IMG/VR virus record: IMGVR_UViG_3300032307_000539 | Location: 1,629 to 65,628 of that record | Length of the DNA: 64,000 nt | Source: a virus | Taxonomy: Duplodnaviria; Caudoviricetes | Reading direction: 5' to 3' (one strand) | Shown here: one piece after another, positions 29,768 through 55,850 of the stretch | Numbering within the stretch: the stretch's first letter is position 1 | Layout: each line of letters starts with the position of its first letter | Notes under the pieces: generated by a model | What the model was told of the DNA's origin: nothing | Databases searched by the model: none | The model's input: only the letters and a program-made list of their open reading frames with translations | Made by a program: the position numbers and the translations under genes

Positions 29768-32410
29768 TTAAGCTCTTTGATTAATAGAATAAATTATTTC
29801 AGTAGAATTAATGTACATACAAAAAATGTAATTAATCTGTCCTGTTGTGTAATTTCCACTTCCACTGAGTTTTTTAAATGGAGAAGTAAATGTAGGTGCT
29901 GTTCCTGAGTTATGTATAATTACATTGGTTACGCCTACCTGAGCATTTGTTGTATCAACTGATATGTTTCCAGTTTCAGGTGTTGCAATTGAACCATACA
30001 ACCTATCTGTTACAAAAGTCAAAACTGTACCTGTTGTAGTACCAGCAGCGGTTGGTAAAGGTGTATATCCTAATGCGTCTTGTTTTGAATTAAATGTAGT
30101 CCAATCTGTAGAACTTAACTTTCCTGTATTTATTGCAGAAGCTACAGGAAGATTAAATGTATGCGTATCAGTTACTGATGAAATATTAAAATCCGTTCCT
30201 GTTGTGCCAACATCAAAATACTGTACTTGTTGTGTTAATCCATTTAACGCTGTTAGACCCGTTGTAAATGTTGTAAGCACCTCACAAAGATTACCATTCT
30301 CTGTATGTAATGTTATAGTCCTTCCACCTGTAATTACATAAATACGGACTGCCAATCTATCAGTAATGAGTAATGAAGTTTGCGGAACAGGAATTGAGGT
30401 ATAGTACTGGTCAACAGTTGTACCATTTGTAATACCTTCTGGATTTGTTGAACCACTTGCGACAAGAGTAAACACATTTGTAGTGCTAACTTTGTAAATT
30501 TCAGCATAAAATTGTGGACTTCCACCAGATGCACTTGATTGAAAATAAAACTCTAAATTCCAATTACCACCAGGTATATTTAAAAACGAAGGGTCTCCAG
30601 CGTCAGTTATAAATGATGCAATATACCCATTACCTGCTCCATTTGTTCTTATAAAATTAGCACCTCCTCCAAGTATTGGTGTTTTACTCATTTGATAATA
30701 AGTATCTCCACCAAATGTACCTTGAGACACACTACCATTAAGATAGTAATTAACCGACGCGCCACCTCCTGTTGAGTTTGGAAAATTAGCTAATGTTCCA
30801 TCACCTCTAACGTATTGCGAAACTGAACCAGCTCCAGTAACTGTTATATCACCACTTGATGTTATAGGGCTATTTGTTACAGTAAAAGCTGAAGGCATAG
30901 TTAATCCAACAGATGTAACACCTGCAGAAGGAATTGTTGGATACGCTATCTGCTTTACATTGCCTGACGAATCTCTTACCAATAAACTATCAGACGTGGC
31001 TCCTGTATCGGGCGTCTGAGATATTTTTAACTTACCATTAGAATCTATAACAAAAGACTCAGTATACGACGCTCCAGTCTTAAATGTATAGGTTCCTCTT
31101 GTTCTATACTCTGTTCCTATTGTGTTGTCATCTATGACTATGTTGGACTGCGACGCACTAGGGTTGCCTAATACAAAGTCCATTTGCGTTTGGGCCCTTT
31201 GTATGGACAGTAGTGTATTACCGTTTAAAAAACTTCTGTTTGAGTCTGCAATCTTTACAGAGCCAAAGTTATCTTCTGATATTTTACTCCAAGTAACATT
31301 TGTTGGGGAACTGAACTTAGCTATTCTGTTTGTTTTACCAACACCTGTAATCCCAGTATCAGGCATAGATGTCAACACATAGTCCATTGTTCCGGGGTCC
31401 CATACATAGGCCAAGTCCGTGTCTAGTGCAATATATATAACTCCAACTGTGCCTATTGATGGAAACGATGCTAAGTCAGCGTACTCAACGACCTGCTCCT
31501 GCGATATAAATGGATTAACACCATCCTCACCGTCATTTGTTAGGTCCGATGTTTTTGTGGGTATTTCTGGCTTGTTTAATATTAGAGAATCTCCTCCTGT
31601 TGAGTCCCAATCCGCATTTATTTGTCTAACCCTAGCCCCTTCGCCTAAATCGAGCCAATAAGTATTTCCTCCAATCTCTGGAAGTATAGCGTCATTATCA
31701 AACTTAGCTTTATATATTCTTCCTTCGTAATAGACTACATCGCCAGCCTTATATTCGTTATTTAAAGCATCTGTGTGATTTACAGAAAACTCAATGGCGT
31801 TTAATGAAACTGCCGGTAAATCATCGATAGTTATAAAACCAACATCGTTGTTAAACTCAGATAGGTTTTCTGGAGCTCCATCTATGTCGCTGTAATTAAC
31901 GGACATATCAAGCAAACCAATTAAAAAAGAATCGTTAAAAGACAAAAATCCGTTTCCGCGGACAAACTCAACATCTATTTTGAGTAGGTTTGAGTTGTCT
32001 GGGTGGTCTTCAACCAAAATTAACTTGTATATAGAGTAGCAATTTGGGTTTGCGGAATTGTAAAAATATATGTAGTCTCCTTCAAAACTTGAGATTAATT
32101 GGTCAAAAAAACGAACTTTTAAATCTTTTTTGGACAGCCCAAAAGATGTTACAGAATTAAACGAAACTGTATCAGGAGAGGGTTCAAAAATCCAAATAAA
32201 GCCAGAAGGCGTGCCAGATGGGTTTTGCCACTCTGTGTACCTTAAAGTGACGGAGTTTGGAAATAAAATTGTACCAACGCTTGAGTAGTACTCTGCAACC
32301 TTGTCGGCTGTAAAGTTCTTTGTTTGATTAGAAGACTGAGCATCGCTACCAATCCACTTATCATTACCTCTTACTACACCATCGTTTTCGTATGTATGTA
32401 TTCTTGCCAT
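29768..32410 (-). CDS. tail fibre protein
   Basis: 880 aa; Thr/Gly/Ser rich; LSEFNNDVGFI, KTSDLTNDG, SSTDWTTFNSKQDAL fibre motifs. Confidence 0.75.
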   Translation of the reverse strand: MARIHTYENDGVVRGNDKWIGSDAQSSNQTKNFTADKVAEYYSSVGTILFPNSVTLRYTEWQNPSGTPSGFIWIFEPSPDTVSFNSVTSFGLSKKDLKVRFFDQLISSFEGDYIYFYNSANPNCYSIYKLILVEDHPDNSNLLKIDVEFVRGNGFLSFNDSFLIGLLDMSVNYSDIDGAPENLSEFNNDVGFITIDDLPAVSLNAIEFSVNHTDALNNEYKAGDVVYYEGRIYKAKFDNDAILPEIGGNTYWLDLGEGARVRQINADWDSTGGDSLILNKPEIPTKTSDLTNDGEDGVNPFISQEQVVEYADLASFPSIGTVGVIYIALDTDLAYVWDPGTMDYVLTSMPDTGITGVGKTNRIAKFSSPTNVTWSKISEDNFGSVKIADSNRSFLNGNTLLSIQRAQTQMDFVLGNPSASQSNIVIDDNTIGTEYRTRGTYTFKTGASYTESFVIDSNGKLKISQTPDTGATSDSLLVRDSSGNVKQIAYPTIPSAGVTSVGLTMPSAFTVTNSPITSSGDITVTGAGSVSQYVRGDGTLANFPNSTGGGASVNYYLNGSVSQGTFGGDTYYQMSKTPILGGGANFIRTNGAGNGYIASFITDAGDPSFLNIPGGNWNLEFYFQSSASGGSPQFYAEIYKVSTTNVFTLVASGSTNPEGITNGTTVDQYYTSIPVPQTSLLITDRLAVRIYVITGGRTITLHTENGNLCEVLTTFTTGLTALNGLTQQVQYFDVGTTGTDFNISSVTDTHTFNLPVASAINTGKLSSTDWTTFNSKQDALGYTPLPTAAGTTTGTVLTFVTDRLYGSIATPETGNISVDTTNAQVGVTNVIIHNSGTAPTFTSPFKKLSGSGNYTTGQINYIFCMYINSTEIIYSINQRA

Positions 32411-37708: not shown

Positions 37709-37964
37709 ATAAAACAACTTTTACGTCGTCTTCGCTAATTACAATATACTTTGTCTCTCCTACCCTGATTTCACTTCCGGCAATATCGTCGTAATAAACA
37801 ACATCACCCACTTGAACTGAATCCACCTTGTCGGACTTTAATTCTACCTTACCGGTTTTATATCGTATTGACTTGTCAGAAAACTCAGTTATAACAAGCC
37901 CAGCTTTGTTCTTAACTTCCTGTTGAACCTTACTAAGAAGTATAGTTTTTCCTAATGCCTTCAT
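37707..37964 (-). CDS. groES: co-chaperonin GroES
   Basis: MKALGKTILL...AGLVI...VQVGDVVYY...VISEDDV; directly after groEL. Confidence 0.8.
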   Translation of the reverse strand: MKALGKTILLSKVQQEVKNKAGLVITEFSDKSIRYKTGKVELKSDKVDSVQVGDVVYYDDIAGSEIRVGETKYIVISEDDVKVVL

Positions 37965-39553
37965 TATGCTCTTTTATTTGTAATTGTACACTCAGTAGTT
38001 AACAGTGTAGCCGATACAGAAACGGCGTTCTGAACTGCATTTCTAGTCACTTTAGTGGCATCTATAACACCAACGTAAAACATATCTCCAAAAGACTCTG
38101 ATATAACATCATACCCATATCCAAAACCTCTCTCTTCAATAGTGTCAGCTACATAATTAAAATCAACTGATGCATTCTCTAATATGTTTTTCATTGGCGC
38201 AGAAAGAGCATTTAATACACAAAGATAGCCGTCGACATAGTGTGTCGGGTTTTCAATGTACATATCTACATTTTTTAGGAGCTCCTCTTGAATTTCATAC
38301 AAACAAATACCACCCCCAGCAACAACACCTTCTTCAAGAGCAGACTTTACCGCTTTAATCGCATCATCAACACGGTCTTTCTTTTCTCTCATCTCAACTT
38401 CGGTATCGGCGCCAACATAAATAACAGCAACACCTCCAGAAAGCCTGCTTAACCTATCCTTGTAATGCCATAAATTAAGCTTGTTTTCAGCCCTTGCAAT
38501 CGCATCATTTACAGTTTTGATAGTATCTTCTATTTCTTCCTTAAAAGTCTCTCTATCGGTAATTATTACAGTGTCTTTCTCTGTAGAAACACATTTAATT
38601 GCGTGACCTAAATAGCTTGAGTCAACAGTGGACAAGTCGTTTCCTGTTTCGTCAGAAGCGAGTATGGCTCCTGTTAAAACACAAAGGTCTTGAAGTAGTT
38701 CAAATCTCTTAATACCAACTCCTTCTGGTTTTACAACATTAACCTTAATATTCCCTTTTGCCTTGTTTACGTTTAATGCATTAAGCACGGAATCATCCAT
38801 ATCTGAAATAATTAACAAAGAACGCTTATTGCTTGTTACTACTTCAAGCACAGAAATAATTTCGTCCATAGACTTAATCTCTTGGTCTGAAATAAATACA
38901 AGAGGGTTATGTAGTACGGCCTCGTGTTTTTCTTTATTGGTAATTAAGTACGGGCTAGCATATCCTTTATTAATTTTTGTCCCATTAATTACGTCTACGT
39001 GTGTTTTGGAAGTAAGGCTTTCCTCCATAGTTACAATACCATTCTTGCCCACCTTTGAATATGCGTCTGCGATAATGTTACCTAGCTCCGGGTCGTTATT
39101 TGCGGAAATCCTAGACACGCTTTTCAGTGTGGTTTTATTTACTTTCTTAGACTTTTTCTTTAGAATTTCTACAACATCTTTAGCGCATCCTTCCATCCCT
39201 TTTTTAAACATCGTAATGTTTGTTCCGTCTTGAACAACACCCATTGCATTTTCAATAATAGCTTGAGCCAAAACCATAGATGTTGAGGTTCCATCCCCGG
39301 CATTATCAGCACTTCTTGAAGACGCTTGCTTTACAACGCTGGCTCCAAGATTTTCAATTGGGTCGGAAAGATTAATTGAGTTTGCGACAGTAACACCATC
39401 CTTTGAAACGTGAGGAAGCCCTCTTTCGTCTTCGATGATTACATTCCTGCCCGAAGGACCTAATGTAACTTTCACTGCATTCGCAACAGTGTCTACTCCT
39501 TTTTTCAATTTAGTCTTGGCATCAATGCCATAAAGAACTTCTTTTTCTATCAT
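37964..39553 (-). CDS. groEL: chaperonin GroEL (phage type)
   Basis: AVKVTLGPSGRNV, KDGVTVA, AGDGTSTS, EEGVVAGGG; lacks the GGM tail. Confidence 0.95.
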   Translation of the reverse strand: MIEKEVLYGIDAKTKLKKGVDTVANAVKVTLGPSGRNVIIEDERGLPHVSKDGVTVANSINLSDPIENLGASVVKQASSRSADNAGDGTSTSMVLAQAIIENAMGVVQDGTNITMFKKGMEGCAKDVVEILKKKSKKVNKTTLKSVSRISANNDPELGNIIADAYSKVGKNGIVTMEESLTSKTHVDVINGTKINKGYASPYLITNKEKHEAVLHNPLVFISDQEIKSMDEIISVLEVVTSNKRSLLIISDMDDSVLNALNVNKAKGNIKVNVVKPEGVGIKRFELLQDLCVLTGAILASDETGNDLSTVDSSYLGHAIKCVSTEKDTVIITDRETFKEEIEDTIKTVNDAIARAENKLNLWHYKDRLSRLSGGVAVIYVGADTEVEMREKKDRVDDAIKAVKSALEEGVVAGGGICLYEIQEELLKNVDMYIENPTHYVDGYLCVLNALSAPMKNILENASVDFNYVADTIEERGFGYGYDVISESFGDMFYVGVIDATKVTRNAVQNAVSVSATLLTTECTITNKRA

Positions 39554-47248: not shown

Positions 47249-48139
47249 ATGTGTATAGCTATATTGAATACTAAAAAAGGTGGATTAATTTCTGATGAGT
47301 CAATTTATAATTCTTGGGAGAACAACGATATGGGCGGTGGTCTTCTCTGGAATAAGTCAGGCAAGCTGAATGTCTTTAAGACCAAAACATACGCCGAGTT
47401 CCTGTCTATGTACAAATCTCTACGTGCTGACAATGACGTTGAAAACATTGTGCTTCACTTTAGGATTGCTACTAGCGGCTACGATGGTATGCATAACATT
47501 CACCCCTTCTTGGTCTCTGAAAACCTTGGGTTTGTTCATAACGGAGTGATTAACGGTCTTGGTGACAAGGATTATTCAGACACTTATTACTTTAATGAGA
47601 TGTTGAAGAATCTTCACGGTAACTTCCTAAAGAACATCACAATCATCGAGTTAATCGAGAACTACATAGGTTACAGCAAGTTAATCTTCTTGAACAATGA
47701 TGGTCGTTACAGGATTATAAACGAGCACTATGGTCACTGGGTGGGCAACAACTGGTATTCAAACGACTCGTACAAGTGGGTTAACAACTACGTTTACTAC
47801 GGTAATCAGAAGGTTTCTAAGTATGATTCTAAGTTAGATGCAAGCGCAAGAACATTTGTAGACGAAGATGATTTTGATTATGATTATGGTTACGGTGTTC
47901 CAAAAAAAGTTGACTCCGGACTAGAAGAGAGATTGTCTATTGATGGGTTTACTGAGTTTGAGTGCTACGAAGAGCTTTGTAGTTTTTATGGGGCGACGCC
48001 ATACACTGATGAAGCTGAAGAATTACTCAGCGAAGCGATGCAAGAATACCAAATAGACAACTGTATAGACCTTTATGACTGCTGGGTAAACTACAGTGCC
48101 TATCAAAACAATCAACGAAAAAACGGTGTTATCAACTAA
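47249..48139 (+). CDS. class II (Ntn) glutamine amidotransferase
   Basis: N-terminal MC, HFRIAT, HPF, HNG, SDT motifs; next to the amidoligase. Confidence 0.85.
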   Translation: MCIAILNTKKGGLISDESIYNSWENNDMGGGLLWNKSGKLNVFKTKTYAEFLSMYKSLRADNDVENIVLHFRIATSGYDGMHNIHPFLVSENLGFVHNGVINGLGDKDYSDTYYFNEMLKNLHGNFLKNITIIELIENYIGYSKLIFLNNDGRYRIINEHYGHWVGNNWYSNDSYKWVNNYVYYGNQKVSKYDSKLDASARTFVDEDDFDYDYGYGVPKKVDSGLEERLSIDGFTEFECYEELCSFYGATPYTDEAEELLSEAMQEYQIDNCIDLYDCWVNYSAYQNNQRKNGVIN

Positions 48140-48194
48140 TTTGTGTAATAATGGGCGGCGCCTTACCTCGTCGCCCTATTAAAAAATATTTACT

Positions 48195-48458
48195 ATGAAT
48201 GTAGAAGAATTTAAAGAAAGATGCAGATTAATAATGGGAGACGACGACTTTGATTTTGTGTTTTCAAAGGTTAAGGAATCAAACGTTGAGTATTACTACA
48301 AACACAAAGACGGGCTCTCTAAAATAATAAACTCGTTTTCTTGGTCGTTTCACGACGATAACAGATGTAGAAATATTTGCGACAAATACTTAGAACTAAA
48401 CACGATGGTAAATTACAGTCACCTAAGCACCCGTTCTTTATATCACACCTTATATTAA
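48195..48458 (+). CDS. hypothetical protein
   Basis: ORF in the small-gene array. Confidence 0.5.
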   Translation: MNVEEFKERCRLIMGDDDFDFVFSKVKESNVEYYYKHKDGLSKIINSFSWSFHDDNRCRNICDKYLELNTMVNYSHLSTRSLYHTLY

Positions 48459-48462
48459 ATCT

Positions 48463-48723
48463 ATGACTTACATTGAAAAACTAGAAGAAGTTCTAAATGA
48501 AGACTTCTTAAAACTACTTGTGTATAATTGTAAAAAAACCGGTCGTGAACAAAGGCTTTACGAAGAGATTAATTACAATAACGCTGTGCTATTCATCTCA
48601 CGGCTCGTGGGAATATTTGAAACTGACAATAGTGATTATTGGTACGACGCACATTTATCCGTACATTCTCTTAATGTTATGGGTGATTTAGGAATTGAAG
48701 AACCAAAAAACATATTCAAATGA
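48463..48723 (+). CDS. hypothetical protein
   Basis: ORF in the small-gene array. Confidence 0.5.
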   Translation: MTYIEKLEEVLNEDFLKLLVYNCKKTGREQRLYEEINYNNAVLFISRLVGIFETDNSDYWYDAHLSVHSLNVMGDLGIEEPKNIFK

Positions 48724-49001
48724 AAGAAAATTTAAAATCAATCGTGAAAAACTTGGTCAACTTTTTTGACAAGAAAACCAAAGACTTATCTTTGATGAGT
48801 AGAAAACAAGAACTTAGCTACATAAAGTCTTCTGTTGCGGACCTTATCTTGAGGTCCAGACCAAACGGAGGGTGTTTAAGCGTCTCTGAAATCTGCGAAG
48901 TATTAAAGTATATCGAATCAGAAGTTGAGCAAAACATATTAGATAAAAAGCAACAGGCTATTGAACTTTTAGAGGAAATACAAAGTAACACTGATATTTA
49001 A
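48720..49001 (+). CDS. hypothetical protein
   Basis: ATGA-coupled ORF. Confidence 0.5.
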   Translation: MKENLKSIVKNLVNFFDKKTKDLSLMSRKQELSYIKSSVADLILRSRPNGGCLSVSEICEVLKYIESEVEQNILDKKQQAIELLEEIQSNTDI

Positions 49002-49024
49002 TCACAATCAACCGGAAAGAGACT

Positions 49025-49225
49025 ATGACAACATTTGAAACTTTATTAATAATCATCGTGTGGATAGGTTATGGAGTATTTAGCGCTTATCAAGCAATTA
49101 ATGTGAATAACAGATGTCACAATGCTAATTTAGGAATATATGTAATGTTTCCTATACTTTCGCCTATTATTCTTATAGCAAGAGTATTGCTAGGTATTTT
49201 TAACCATAATATATTTAAATCATGA
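49025..49225 (+). CDS. small membrane protein
   Basis: Two TMs. Confidence 0.5.
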   Translation: MTTFETLLIIIVWIGYGVFSAYQAINVNNRCHNANLGIYVMFPILSPIILIARVLLGIFNHNIFKS

Positions 49226-49494
49226 GAACAATCAAAGAACTATTACAAATAATGCTTGATAATCAAGACTTATTTCAAAGAGGATTATGCGGTTGGGCGT
49301 GTCGTATATATGAACATGACATAATAAACAATGAAGAACTTTCGGAGTTAGAAGATTACATAATAGACAACAGACCATCAAAATATTCTAGCATTAGTGC
49401 TTTTCTTTGTCAAAATTCCCTGTTTTATTGGACTCATGGTAATATTTCTCCAAGAATCAAATGGATTAAAAAGCATATTAAACTTAACTCTTAA
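49222..49494 (+). CDS. hypothetical protein
   Basis: ATGA-coupled ORF; GLC...FYW..G.ISPRIKW. Confidence 0.55.
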   Translation: MRTIKELLQIMLDNQDLFQRGLCGWACRIYEHDIINNEELSELEDYIIDNRPSKYSSISAFLCQNSLFYWTHGNISPRIKWIKKHIKLNS

Positions 49495-49527
49495 TAATCA
49501 CAAAAAACTAATAGAAATTGTAAAAGA

Positions 49528-49689
49528 ATGAAAATAATAGACAAACTTGTAATTATTGCAATGGGTTTATTTATATGCTTTAAAATTAGTTGGGAAACAC
49601 CGCTACCGTTAATAGGTCTGATTCCAATTTTATATGCAATAATTTATTTAATAATCCGAGGCTTTAATGATAATGATGATTGCGGCTAA
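49528..49689 (+). CDS. small membrane protein (53 aa, not in the ORF track)
   Basis: MKIIDKLVIIAMGLFICF...; its TAA lies inside GGCTAAC of attC-like site 1. Confidence 0.5.
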   Translation: MKIIDKLVIIAMGLFICFKISWETPLPLIGLIPILYAIIYLIIRGFNDNDDCG

Positions 49690-49822
49690 CGAACGATACT
49701 TGGCGTTCGGCATTGATAGAACGCACAAACCATTATTAACCTAATACACTTTATAAAATGAACCAAACGAACGAAAACCACGAAAACAATGCTGACGCTA
49801 AGTTATTATTAGGCGCAGTTAA
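49681..49822 (+). repeat. attC-like palindromic site 1
   Basis: TGCGGCTAAC..ACTTGGCGTTCGGCATTG ... CAATGCTGACGCTAAGT..ATTAGGCGCA imperfect inverted repeat. Confidence 0.6.
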
Positions 49823-50024
49823 AAAAAAGCACCCGATTGACAACGGAAAATGGATTATAGAAAAATTGGGAATGATGCCATATAACTTAGTTGAAAACCA
49901 TAAAAGTAAAACAGTTAGAAAAATTGGATTATTCCTATGTTTGATATGGTTGCCAATAGTAATGACACCATTCATTCCATATTTTTTATACAATATGGTA
50001 GAAGTGATTTTGCACGATGCTTAA
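49758..50024 (+). CDS. cassette-like membrane protein
   Basis: Starts inside site 1, ends at site 2; C-terminal TM. Confidence 0.55.
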   Translation: MNQTNENHENNADAKLLLGAVKKKHPIDNGKWIIEKLGMMPYNLVENHKSKTVRKIGLFLCLIWLPIVMTPFIPYFLYNMVEVILHDA

Positions 50025-50168
50025 TTGCGCCTAACGTGCCGATGCTATACGAAGGCGGGGAAATAGATGCACCCCCTGTCAGCCTTGCACAAATGACAAA
50101 TAGTAGCACAAACTTTCAATTGCGGAACGCTGCCCCGCTTTTGTATAGCATTTGTTGGCAGCAGTTAA
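50021..50168 (+). repeat. attC-like palindromic site 2
   Basis: GCCTAAC..ATGCTATACGAAGGCGGGG ... CCCCGCTTTTGTATAGCAT..GTTGGCA. Confidence 0.65.
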
Positions 50169-50178
50169 ATTTAAAGAG

Positions 50179-50457
50179 ATGACTTATGTAGTAATGACAA
50201 ACGGAAAAAAAGGGATGTTCTTGTTCCTTGTTGATAGAACTAAAATCAAGGACAGATGGTGGAGTTATGACTGGGCTGATGCAATGCAATTTCATAAACA
50301 AGATGCAGCCAAAACACAGGCAAGAAAATTGAGGTACAAAGAGCCAGAAGTCATAACGATTAATGAAGCTATTAAATTGACCAAAAGAAATGATGCCAAT
50401 TATGATTATGAAGTACAAGAACATCTCTTTTCTTCTGATGCACTTGGTCAATATTAG
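50179..50457 (+). CDS. cassette-like hypothetical protein
   Basis: ATG shortly after site 2; followed by a half site TTGCACACAAC. Confidence 0.55.
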   Translation: MTYVVMTNGKKGMFLFLVDRTKIKDRWWSYDWADAMQFHKQDAAKTQARKLRYKEPEVITINEAIKLTKRNDANYDYEVQEHLFSSDALGQY

Positions 50458-50583
50458 CGGTGTCGCTTTATTGCACACAACTCAAGGCTAACTGCATATT
50501 TTACCGACTTATACACCAAAACAAGGGGCATACCCCTAAAAAACCATAACAAAAAAAGAGTTTAACCTTAAAAAATTAGAAAA

Positions 50584-51390
50584 ATGAAAAACATACATTT
50601 AATACCAACGGATAAGGCGAGTATGTTATTTTATTATAACAATCACTTAGGATTAGCAAGAAATTTTGTAAAGAAAAATGATGGAGTTAATCCAAAACAC
50701 ATCTACATCACTTCTGATGAAGAAATTAAAGTTAACGACTATATTACAGATGGTTATAAAGTATGGAAGTGGAAAGATGATTCAAGTCTATTAGGCAGAA
50801 AAAAAGTTATTTTAACAACAGACCAAAATTTAATTGCTGATGGAATACAAGCTATTGATGATGAGTTCTTGGAATGGTTTGTTAAGAATCCAAGTTGTGA
50901 GTGGGTGGAGGTTAGATTTGACTACAAAAAATTCAGATGGAGCGACTTAAATAAGTCGCAATGTTACAAAATAATCATTCCAAAAGAAGAACCTAAGCCA
51001 CATTCATTCTGTGAAACACCAGAAGAAAAATGCACAATGAATTATTGTGATGAAAATGGTTGCCAAAATAGAGTAAGACACTTAGTAGAGCCACAAGAAG
51101 AACTTAAACAAGAAATCATATCAACAGAAGAAGACGCAAAGATTTTTGTAGACACTTTAGAAAACCCTCCTGCTCCTAATGAAAAGTTGAAAACAGCTTT
51201 TGAAAAACAATTAAATCAAGAAACACTTGAAGAAGCTGCGGAAAAGTATGGGTGGAGAATTAAAATAAATACATTCTCAGATAAAGTAAAAGCAAATGAA
51301 TTAGCAGAATCAGCACAACAAGATTTTATTGAAGGTGCTAAATCAGATGCAGCAAGAGACTATTGGTTTAAAATATTTAAAGAACAATAA
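50584..51390 (+). CDS. hypothetical protein (ETLEEAAE family)
   Basis: MKNIHLIPTDK..., IDDEFLEWFVKNPSCE, ETLEEAAE. Confidence 0.65.
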   Translation: MKNIHLIPTDKASMLFYYNNHLGLARNFVKKNDGVNPKHIYITSDEEIKVNDYITDGYKVWKWKDDSSLLGRKKVILTTDQNLIADGIQAIDDEFLEWFVKNPSCEWVEVRFDYKKFRWSDLNKSQCYKIIIPKEEPKPHSFCETPEEKCTMNYCDENGCQNRVRHLVEPQEELKQEIISTEEDAKIFVDTLENPPAPNEKLKTAFEKQLNQETLEEAAEKYGWRIKINTFSDKVKANELAESAQQDFIEGAKSDAARDYWFKIFKEQ

Positions 51391-51391
51391 G

Positions 51392-51661
51392 ATGGTAAGT
51401 AAAGAAACACTTGAAGAAGCTGCGGAGAAATTTTTAAATAAAGATGGTTTTAATTTTTATAACCATTATGATACAAGACCATCGTTTATCGCAGGCGCTA
51501 AATGGCAACAAGAACAAGATAAGAGTAAGTATAGTGAGGAAGAAGTTTTGAAATTTACTCAAACAATTCTTATGCAGTATAAGTTTGGTAATACAGACAT
51601 TGAACAAATGGATTTGCTAAAAGAAACTTTTCAATTATTTAAAAAACAAATAAGATTATGA
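51392..51661 (+). CDS. hypothetical protein (ETLEEAAE family)
   Basis: KETLEEAAE...FIAGAKWQQEQ..YSEEEV. Confidence 0.6.
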   Translation: MVSKETLEEAAEKFLNKDGFNFYNHYDTRPSFIAGAKWQQEQDKSKYSEEEVLKFTQTILMQYKFGNTDIEQMDLLKETFQLFKKQIRL

Positions 51662-52143
51662 AACAAACAGCGGAATATATAATGCCACATCTTACATTAT
51701 ACGAAGATGGCAGATTATATAATCATAAAACAAAAAAATTTAAGAAGTGGACAAAAGATACTAATGGCTATATGAAAACACAAATATGGGTTTGCGGGAA
51801 ACCTAAAAATGTAAGTCAGCACAGGTTATTAGCACAATCATTTATACCTAATCCTAAAAATAAGCCACAAGTTAATCATATTAATGGCATTAAACACGAC
51901 AACAGATTAGATAATCTTGAATGGGCAACACAATCTGAAAATAGCAAACACTCGTTTGCCAATGGTTTGCAAAAGACAACAAGACCACATATGAGAAAGG
52001 TTATAAATACTGATTCTCAAAAAATTTATGACTGCATATCTGATGCAGCAAAAGATATTAAAGTGTCTATTGGACATTTAAACTTGATGCTAAATGGTAA
52101 AAAAAACAATACAACTAAATTAAAAATTTATGAAAAAAGTTAG
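51658..52143 (+). CDS. HNH homing endonuclease
   Basis: HRLLAQSFIPNP..KPQVNHINGIKHDNRLDNLEW.T.SEN; C-terminal NUMOD1-like helix. Confidence 0.85.
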   Translation: MKQTAEYIMPHLTLYEDGRLYNHKTKKFKKWTKDTNGYMKTQIWVCGKPKNVSQHRLLAQSFIPNPKNKPQVNHINGIKHDNRLDNLEWATQSENSKHSFANGLQKTTRPHMRKVINTDSQKIYDCISDAAKDIKVSIGHLNLMLNGKKNNTTKLKIYEKS

Positions 52144-52774: not shown

Positions 52775-53189
52775 AGAAAAGAGAAGAGAGATTTTTTTAT
52801 TGATGAAGTCTAACAAAATTTCATTACATAGGTTTAAAACTTCCGAAGCTATGTTTTACAATGGCATTAAATGTGAGATGAAGCCTTCAGATTATGGTAA
52901 TGTGTACGGTGTTTTTGACACCTCTACAGACCTATATAAAGAAATAAGCGAAAACGACTTAGACCTGATATTAAAACACGGGCTAGACTTTGTGTGTGAC
53001 AGGCTTAAATACAATAGACGTTTAAAAAAGATTGAGAGACTTACAAGTAACTTAGAAAACGAAAAACACACGTCTTACGGAAAAGCAATTGTACTGTCAA
53101 CAATTGAAAACCTGAAAGAATCTATGAGTGAAATAAAAGAAAGAAGGAAAGAAGATAAAGATTTCTTTGTTGGTTTAGAAGTAATTTAG
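52764..53189 (+). CDS. hypothetical protein
   Basis: Coupled ORF. Confidence 0.55.
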   Translation: MSIEEKRREIFLLMKSNKISLHRFKTSEAMFYNGIKCEMKPSDYGNVYGVFDTSTDLYKEISENDLDLILKHGLDFVCDRLKYNRRLKKIERLTSNLENEKHTSYGKAIVLSTIENLKESMSEIKERRKEDKDFFVGLEVI

Positions 53190-55772: not shown

Positions 55773-55850
55773 GTCCGCATATCGGCTCTGGCTCATAACC
55801 AGTTGAAACCGTAGTCTGGTTACACGTGGGTTCAAATCCCTCTGCGGACA
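55773..55850 (+). tRNA. D-armless tRNA-like RNA, anticodon CAT
   Basis: GTCCGCA/TGCGGAC acceptor, CTGG-CTCATAA-CCAG anticodon arm, GGG-TTCAAAT-CCC T-arm. Confidence 0.65.

Follow-up and report, generated by a model that had tools for sequence, protein, structure and literature searches.

Two imperfect palindromes separate single small genes in the early region of a Flavobacterium-type phage genome, and the question raised by this locus is whether such palindromes delimit exchangeable gene cassettes in the manner of integron attC sites. Integrons have been described mostly in Proteobacteria and in connection with antibiotic resistance. The window, namely, the whole stretch of DNA that was analysed, is 64 kb long and was taken from a 65.6-kb IMG/VR virus record rated complete by CheckV. 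Structural genes occupy the − strand to approximately 41 kb, and small early genes occupy the + strand beyond; the palindromes sit amid small early ORFs without family matches. The large terminase matched its counterpart in an uncultured spring-water podovirus at 61.6% identity and those of Flavobacterium 'elemo' phages at 42%, and Cellulophaga phages were also among the matches. A 268-aa neighbour protein had 314 relatives, none of them close. No recombinase is encoded in the window's own genome, and no tRNA was detected in the window by ARAGORN. A search of the region against Rfam 15 returned no family at the gathering score, and four weak snoRNA- or miRNA-like chance hits appeared at E ≤ 10.

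Both palindromes proposed in the first-pass annotation are real. The features of the locus, including the boxes and stems defined by the covariance model described below, are as follows:

49528–49689, + strand: ORF1, 53 aa, membrane-like; its final codons and stop lie inside left box L1.
49676–49691, + strand: left box L1, 10 nt followed by CTAACG; the predicted crossover CTAA/CG falls between 49689 and 49690.
49677–49826, + strand: site 1, a family member with 105.6 bits (E 2e-23) against the covariance model.
49698–49715 with 49787–49803, + strand: inner stem of site 1, 17 bp, with the closing stem and internal loop outside it.
49758–50024, + strand: ORF2, 88 aa, without a family match, starting at an ATG in the site 1 loop.
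49807–49822, + strand: right box R1, pairing with L2 at 15 of 16 positions (13 Watson–Crick plus two G.T) and with L1 at 13 of 16.
49690–50034, + strand: predicted complete cassette, 345 bp, which would comprise hairpin 1, R1, ORF2 and L2 as far as CTAA.
50021–50036, + strand: left box L2, 10 nt followed by CTAACG.
50022–50172, + strand: site 2, a family member with 121.2 bits; its loop has no ATG.
50041–50060 with 50133–50152, + strand: inner stem of site 2, 20 bp.
50153–50168, + strand: right box R2, for which no matching left box was detected downstream.
50179–50457, + strand: ORF3, 92 aa, no family match.

The left ends recur at 49679 and 50024 (spacing 345) and the right ends at 49806 and 50152 (spacing 346). 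Each element folds into a closing stem, an internal loop, a 17–20-bp stem and a loop of approximately 70 nt. The loop of site 1 is 71 nt long and contains the start of ORF2, which reads across the 3′ arm and R1 and stops within L2. The long arms of site 2 (50042–50060 and 50133–50151) are 19 nt each and 89% complementary; the ATG of ORF3 lies 10 nt past GCAGTTAA and 6 nt past the model match. Upstream stop codons fall in or beside the left boxes, as had been noted from the sequence: the ORF1 stop is the TAA within CTAAC (49687–49689), and the ORF2 stop (50022–50024) lies 6 nt ahead of the second box. On the + strand, RNA folding gave z-scores of −5.10 for site 1 and −4.47 for site 2, with none of 200 shuffles as good, and folding with DNA parameters gave −1.98 and −2.77. 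The − strand folded no better than its shuffles (RNA z −1.26 and −1.46; DNA z +0.22 and −0.70).

The two hairpins were used to search for a wider family. An initial pattern scan of IMG/VR returned 27 stretches, 26 of which were chance and only one of which (L014) folded alike; a looser pattern returned 109 stretches, and a fold filter retained 14 loci besides the window. A covariance model was built on an alignment of 16 member sequences. Because these training members had been selected by how their + strand folds, the model carries a degree of strand bias, and the pairing figures given next are to some extent favoured by the selection. Compensatory changes were present in 13 of the 20 predicted pairs of this alignment, and double changes in 13 of the 14 pairs of the inner helix. 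In the 28-pair structure, 84.4% of cells were paired, compared with 67.7% after shuffling (0 of 500 shuffles reached the observed value) and 30–47% when the partner was slid. The family plan comprises a left box of approximately 10 variable nt plus CTAACG, a short internal loop, a covarying stem of 17–20 bp, a variable loop of 2–80 nt, and a right box of TGTTRG plus approximately 10 variable nt, with site lengths of approximately 75–155 nt. CTAAC is invariant in 16/16 aligned members and GTT is present in 15/16, the exception being site 1 (ATT). The internal loop occurs in all members and is asymmetric, with 4–6 nt on the 5′ side and 1–3 nt on the 3′ side.

Model matches total hundreds across unrelated phages and bacteria. 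Other uncultured phages carry 9–20 copies each: at E ≤ 0.01, the complete 40.7-kb genome G003 has 20 matches, G002 has 11 and the 10-kb fragment G001 has 13, and the viral contig G004 had 13 at E ≤ 1e-5. Sites in phages flank methyltransferase genes among up to 20 early genes per 40-kb genome. G003 has two divergent gene blocks, and the sites in each follow the direction of their own block; in an independent set of 79 loci, seven matches were found in four loci, all seven on the gene strand. A blastn search of two sites against 50,697 GenBank phages gave no match, and no tyrosine recombinase, serine recombinase or Y1 transposase was found in the complete phages G000, G002 and G003. A protein common to all site carriers was also sought; a 177-aa protein shared by G002 and G003 was absent from the other loci compared. 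The assignment of both window palindromes to an attC-like, cassette-delimiting hairpin family is supported.

In the window, the best hit of the model beyond sites 1 and 2 reached 13.8 bits at 52966–53104 (E 0.32). A third half-site had been claimed at approximately 50471–50481, after the next gene, and was borne out by neither model, pairing nor folding. This segment was absent from the five best downstream partners of R2; the best of these partners (14/16, at 50830) is itself within chance, with 200 shuffles giving a mean best of 12.6 and a maximum of 14. Folding of 50455–50570 was also no better than that of shuffles (z −1.07). The claimed half-site is thus at chance level. The two nearest GenBank relatives of the window phage have no model match at E ≤ 0.01; the small early ORFs are all missing from MW202828.1, which was compared in the search for an empty site, and no relatives of ORF2 and ORF3 were found in IMG/VR. 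Since the nearest relatives carry no sites, the two-site cluster of the window is regarded as a small and probably acquired outpost of the hairpin family.

The relationship between neighbouring sites is the most informative property of the family. The first-pass annotation had rested its case on the complementarity of 49809–49822 to 50021–50034 at 13 of 14 positions, better than to the left end of its own site, and both statements hold: over 16 nt, R1 forms 13 Watson–Crick and two G.T pairs with L2, compared with 10 and three with L1. The margin of R1 is small when taken alone (15 vs 13 of 16), yet it follows a family-wide rule. Across 35 adjacent pairs from eight sources (seven loci and the window), the mean pairing energy of a right end was −17.6 kcal/mol with the left end of the following site, compared with −9.0 for its own left end and −8.3 for any other left end. 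Of the following and the own site, the following one was the better partner in 30 of the 35 pairs and the own one in four, with a tie in one. A gapless count over the ten variable positions gave 7.74 pairs for the next site (d = +1), compared with 5.2–5.5 for d = −2, −1, 0, +2 and +3. Among 34 adjacent pairs, two positions were nearly always G.T on the + strand (32/34 and 31/34). Inspection by eye showed the offset rule, together with these two G.T positions, in one adjacent pair of bacterial sites, and it also showed matched ends on either side of the gp35 methyltransferase gene in phage P12002L. Both ends of an integron cassette derive from one site in its circular form, which gives such an offset match, and the outer part of each site in a cassette array matches the inner box of the next, as was found here. 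Offset complementarity is the classical signature of integron cassettes.

The same sites occur in bacterial chromosomes. A strict pattern run over 185,579 species genomes returned three contigs, all Bacteroidota metagenome-assembled genomes (MAGs), with at least 8, at least 71 and at least 33 model matches among the 150 candidates scored per genome; among the relatives of one of these array-bearing MAGs, 23 of 41 have matches. Bacteroidota chromosomes carry tens of sites per genome, and cassettes of one or more genes each end in a site. In G019, the matches span 890–1107 kb (approximately 217 kb) of a 2.67-Mb contig and lie almost all on one strand. In the stretches that were read (L232, L235 and L236), most ORFs share a strand and the sites occupy the opposite one, each gene or gene group being followed by one site; one two-gene unit is oriented the phage way round. 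A tyrosine recombinase of 342–369 aa lies at the array edge in G007, G018 and G019, where the homologous enzymes are at most 4 kb from the first site and one-orientation sites start at the recombinase, as in an integron. In G009, whose copy is 37% identical, the recombinase adjoins only a weak site match; no such arrangement exists in the window genome. The recombinase of G019 is divergent from its cassettes, like that of a classical integron, and a 43%-identical recombinase lies just downstream of the array in the viral contig G004.

In NCBI, relatives of this recombinase, which are very common in Flavobacterium, are named 'site-specific tyrosine recombinase/integron integrase'. The enzyme scored 194.1 bits, in two stretches, on TIGR02249, where the cut-off is 265, and 219 bits on NF040815, where it is 220. 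Residues 168–329 aligned gaplessly to positions 2–170 of PF00589, i.e. the IntI-specific insertion is absent. The best solved relatives were archaeal XerA proteins (137 bits, one stretch), with IntI4 lower at 111 bits in two stretches. By these profile and alignment results, the associated enzyme is classed as a Xer-like tyrosine recombinase without the IntI-specific insertion. The use of a host or helper recombinase had been proposed for the phage. The phage indeed has no recombinase of its own, so any cassette movement would need a host enzyme, and a matching enzyme family is common in Flavobacterium; this enzyme is, however, Xer-like and not a canonical IntI.

On this evidence, we consider it fairly probable that both palindromes are attC-like recombination hairpins of a Bacteroidota integron-type cassette system. 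Passages of PMC5027507 place recombination between the A and C of the bottom-strand AAC triplet. The gene strand in the bacterial arrays is the reverse complement of the model, and thus the + strand of the window corresponds to the bottom strand of an integron, the strand that folds. Folding of the bottom strand had been suggested in the first-pass annotation; in the window it is the + strand, not the − strand, that folds. The + strand would fold as single-stranded DNA, and the recombinase would cut at the AAC of the left box; given the AAC rule and the strand match, the crossover is likely at CTAA/CG, giving a predicted cassette of 49690–50034. The G/TT crossover in the right box, as initially assumed, is unlikely: bacterial ORFs lie mostly on the opposite strand, and blocks of phage homology begin at left ends. 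The cassette that had been drawn at 49809–50154 is replaced accordingly by the one predicted from the left-box cut. Excised cassettes would be circular, each joining a left box to the right box of the preceding site, and such a junction would explain the matching ends. The window would then hold one complete cassette (hairpin 1 with ORF2), followed by the second hairpin with ORF3. Phage genes are on the strand that folds, a mirror image of the arrangement in most bacterial cassettes. The original integron-like reading is partly supported: it was right in kind and is much strengthened by the family evidence, and its crossover, strand and enzyme class are corrected.

Many properties of the phage sites also concern gene expression. 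Every phage site lies on the coding strand, and the upstream ORF stops in or just ahead of the left box at most phage sites. Among 62 phage sites examined, 33 have an ORF-opening ATG in the loop, 49–96 nt before the 3′ end of the site, and these ORFs run on across the 3′ arm and right box to encode unrelated proteins, methyltransferases included; the loop thus often supplies the start codon and the first 20–25 codons. At the remaining sites, the ATG was at the 3′ edge (6/62), 3–77 nt past the site (22/62) or absent (1/62). Site 1 is of the loop-ATG kind, and site 2 is of the kind with an ATG after the site. A phage site must therefore also matter for expression, given its constant coding-strand placement and the start codons in 33 of the 62 loops. 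An alternative is that the hairpins act solely in the phage mRNA, by presenting a start codon in an open loop, by insulating or stabilising cistrons or as processing sites, their likeness to attC reflecting ancestry or coincidence. The fold on the + strand but not the − strand, the co-orientation of all phage sites with their genes (in the divergent blocks of G003 and in the independent set alike), the loop start codons and the predominance of G.U over A.C appositions (17 versus 3) in the inner stem across the 16 aligned sequences all agree with this reading, which was initially favoured. It was demoted by the offset rule and by the placement of the bacterial sites. These sites are antisense to most genes, yet they keep the two fixed wobble positions, which indicates that the asymmetry belongs to the DNA site. 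The other offset positions of the 34 adjacent pairs held 10 G.T (G.U) and 17 A.C appositions; G.T is no commoner than A.C, unlike what selection on RNA pairing would give. The arrays next to a recombinase are left unexplained by a role in mRNA, and the lack of an Rfam match also stands against it. We regard action in mRNA alone as unlikely, although it is the best placed of the alternatives.

Two further RNA-level candidates were rejected. Translational bypassing, with take-off at GGC-UAA and landing at GGC, is not compatible with L014, in which the post-site frame closes after four codons and the ATG is out of frame. Splicing or ribozyme activity was set aside in view of the lack of an Rfam match and the variable interior.

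Mosaicism around the sites was observed repeatedly, with breakpoints at site ends. The block common to L036 and L049 starts at the left end of one site and stops at the left end of the next, and the block common to L108 and L118 likewise runs as far as the following left end. Over 50031–50172, site 2 has 95.8% identity to a site in the unrelated viral contig L098, with unrelated flanks; six pairs, this one among them, have only the site in common, with blocks beginning at left ends. In contigs from other samples that contain site 1 or site 2, the sequence downstream of the site differs. No excision circle, empty site or cassette-skipping joint was found among the listed contigs of four runs, a material in which rare forms cannot appear. 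Site-only pairs are not predicted by a single crossover point, which suggests that homologous exchange also takes place at the conserved boxes; exchange at both boxes probably occurs by general recombination as well. A YqaJ/RecE-like exonuclease is encoded in G002 and G003, and in G003 a DUF3127-type single-strand binding protein lies beside it.

These observations are what would be expected if the sites were mere homology linkers, like the PeSL of T4-type phages, at which general phage recombination swaps genes with neither a site-specific enzyme nor hairpin chemistry. Breakpoints at both site ends, pairs common only in the site, unlike downstream sequences in other samples, the exonuclease and binding protein, and the PeSL precedent (PMC2839356 and PMC4122927) all fit. 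Homologous exchange alone, however, neither creates nor keeps the complementarity between a right end and the next left end, and it explains neither the covarying inner stem nor the recombinase at the edge of bacterial arrays. We judge a pure linker role to be improbable, slightly more so than a role in mRNA alone. Chance structures, ordinary terminators or a local duplication might be suggested by the presence of only two copies in the genome and none in the nearest database relatives, but this explanation is already refuted, with a negligible probability, by hundreds of covarying model matches in unrelated phages and bacteria and by the absence of a T-run after either site.

The cassette reading, which we prefer, was then compared with known systems. 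The hairpins have in common with integron attC sites an imperfect hairpin with basal AAC/GTT triplets, a variable terminal loop and low stem conservation. The R-box arrangement of attC, with 5′-RYYYAAC-3′ facing 5′-GTTRRRY-3′ at the hairpin base, was found, the outer R/Y positions of this consensus conforming in 4/16 members, about chance level. Terminal structure and length vary as in attC, with loops of 2 to approximately 80 nt, and attC lengths of 57–141 bp overlap the approximately 75–155 nt recorded here. Their arrays, like those of integrons, have one site per cassette, a single orientation and an outer end that matches the inner end of the next site. The central spacer of attC is unpaired and usually 5–6 nt on each arm; the internal loop that may correspond to it is always present here, but it is asymmetric (4–6 vs 1–3 nt). 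The family further differs from attC in the two fixed G.T appositions of its closing stem and in its phage genes, which lie on the folding strand and often start within the loop. Extrahelical bases of attC lie near L″ on the bottom strand, a G plus a T 6 bp further, and contact the IntI-specific domain, according to passages of PMC5027507. Such canonical extrahelical bases are not evident in the hairpins described here, where single bulges occur on the 5′ arm approximately 10 bp into the stem and are absent from site 2, L014, L083 and L098. The system works like an integron but departs from the canonical family in two defining features, the IntI insertion and the extrahelical bases.

Clusters of attC sites in phages are already published. 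According to passages of Qi et al. 2023 (PMC9892861), a screen of 10,705 phage genomes found 17 attC clusters without an integrase, one of which is in Polaribacter phage P12002L and involves two methyltransferase genes, and IntI1 recombined one of the sites of this phage. Our model matched P12002L at 29993–30066, 38864–38938 and 39107–39251, all on the − strand, which is the gene strand, and one match falls between two methyltransferase genes. These matches are presumably the same as the published attC sites (PMC9892861, as far as its passages describe them). P12002L, a lytic phage of the Flavobacteriaceae type that lacks an integrase and has sites between DNA methyltransferase genes, is thus a parallel to the case described here. 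The phages in the passages of that study have 2–3 sites each, compared with up to 20 in the relatives analysed here, and those passages of PMC9892861 mention neither loop start codons nor a Xer-like partner. The passages of the IntegronFinder 2.0 preprint record one complete integron only in Bacteroidetes, and those of a review list Bacteroidota among the integron-bearing phyla. A title and abstract search found no papers on such Flavobacterium arrays or on start codons in attC loops.

Other repeat families were also considered. PeSL resemble the hairpins in being repeated motifs between small early genes, in plastic regions with mosaic breakpoints at the motifs, and mini-circles have been proposed and detected for them (PMC2839356 and PMC4122927). 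They differ in consisting of a sigma-70 early promoter and a terminator stem-loop that recombine by homology, and they lack offset complementarity, AAC/GTT boxes, bacterial arrays and a recombinase partner. The bacterial arrays, for their part, resemble sedentary chromosomal integrons in their length beside one recombinase, approximately 217 kb in G019. Sedentary chromosomal integrons, such as that of Vibrio with its VCR sites, have very long arrays of similar long-looped sites and one recombinase. The present arrays differ in a recombinase without the IntI-specific insertion and in a host phylum that is Bacteroidota. REP, ERIC and MITE-type palindromes are transcribed intergenic hairpins of approximately 35–150 nt in many copies; they are found in both orientations and do not flank individual genes with matching ends. 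The hairpin family likewise consists of transcribed, many-copy intergenic hairpins, and no transposase partner was found for it.

A broader interpretation, which combines all these elements, is tentative and possible rather than probable. The early regions of many Bacteroidota phages would be mirror-image integron arrays, in which a hairpin opens each cassette and doubles as the 5′ leader, start codon and first 20–25 codons of its gene, while the CTAA box that follows supplies the stop and closes the cassette. A widespread host Xer-like recombinase that needs no extrahelical bases would move the cassettes, phages and hosts would draw on one cassette pool, and the 100-kb-scale arrays would represent a class of integrons largely missed by standard finders.

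If true, these results would mean that Bacteroidota and their lytic phages possess a cassette system of integron-like kind, with atypical sites and a Xer-like enzyme. The fast turnover of phage accessory genes would then have a concrete mechanism, and phages and hosts a direct path for exchanging genes. A natural DNA recombination site would double as a translation start module, and current integron finders may undercount a whole phylum. The occurrence of the same site family in phages and in Bacteroidota chromosomes suggests that both may draw on a shared pool of swappable genes.

Matches to the covariance model of the hairpin family extended over about 217 kb of the 2.67-Mb contig of a Bacteroidota genome (G019:C1:885170-1106776, of which locus L236 is a part), nearly all of them on the same strand. 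These matches begin 3.8 kb from a divergently oriented Xer/IntI-like recombinase gene, and the stretch has the appearance of a very large cassette array in the chromosome of this bacterium. A 268-aa recombinase was also encoded on the viral contig G004 (L222:1543-2349; G004:C1:44042-44848), which carries 13 sites, and it shared 43% identity with the bacterial array-side recombinase. Given that a resolvase and a Y1 transposase are encoded on the same contig, G004 may represent not a simple phage but a large mobile region.

Two complete phages with site arrays, G003 and G002, have in common a protein of 177 aa and unknown family (PHROG 21613; L220:14303-14836 and L221:3893-4438), which is 72.5% identical between them, whereas their terminases are only about 31% identical. 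Its gene lies immediately upstream of that of the YqaJ exonuclease, and the protein may be an annealing protein.

Several other genes and matches were located in the window, as follows:
37964-39553, minus strand: GroEL-like chaperonin (PHROG 5725, E 4e-138)
51658-52143: HNH homing-endonuclease-like gene, 1.2 kb downstream of the sites
55773-55850: Rfam tRNA match (31.4 bits, barely over the gathering score of 29)

GroEL, and also GroES, were observed in relatives of the window phage. Within 48000-52000, matches to GenBank phage DNA were confined to the HNH gene. ARAGORN detected no tRNA over the whole window, including the Rfam-matched segment.

A short motif, GCACA followed by A or C and AAC-like bases, recurred in the loops of several sites; its copies were positioned as follows:
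about 49723: loop of site 1
about 50087 and about 50106: loop of site 2
about 1568 of L014, an early-found viral family member: loop
about 50472: non-loop copy, in the spacer after ORF3

Most of ORF3 (50179-50457, plus strand) is flanked by a 21-nt inverted repeat with 90% complementarity (50204-50224 and 50415-50435), which showed no resemblance to the boxes of the hairpin family. Summed contig depth over site 2 (50015-50115; runs X2-X4) reached 54 in one metagenome, several-fold above the flanks, which fits many copies of the site 2 type in the community of that metagenome.
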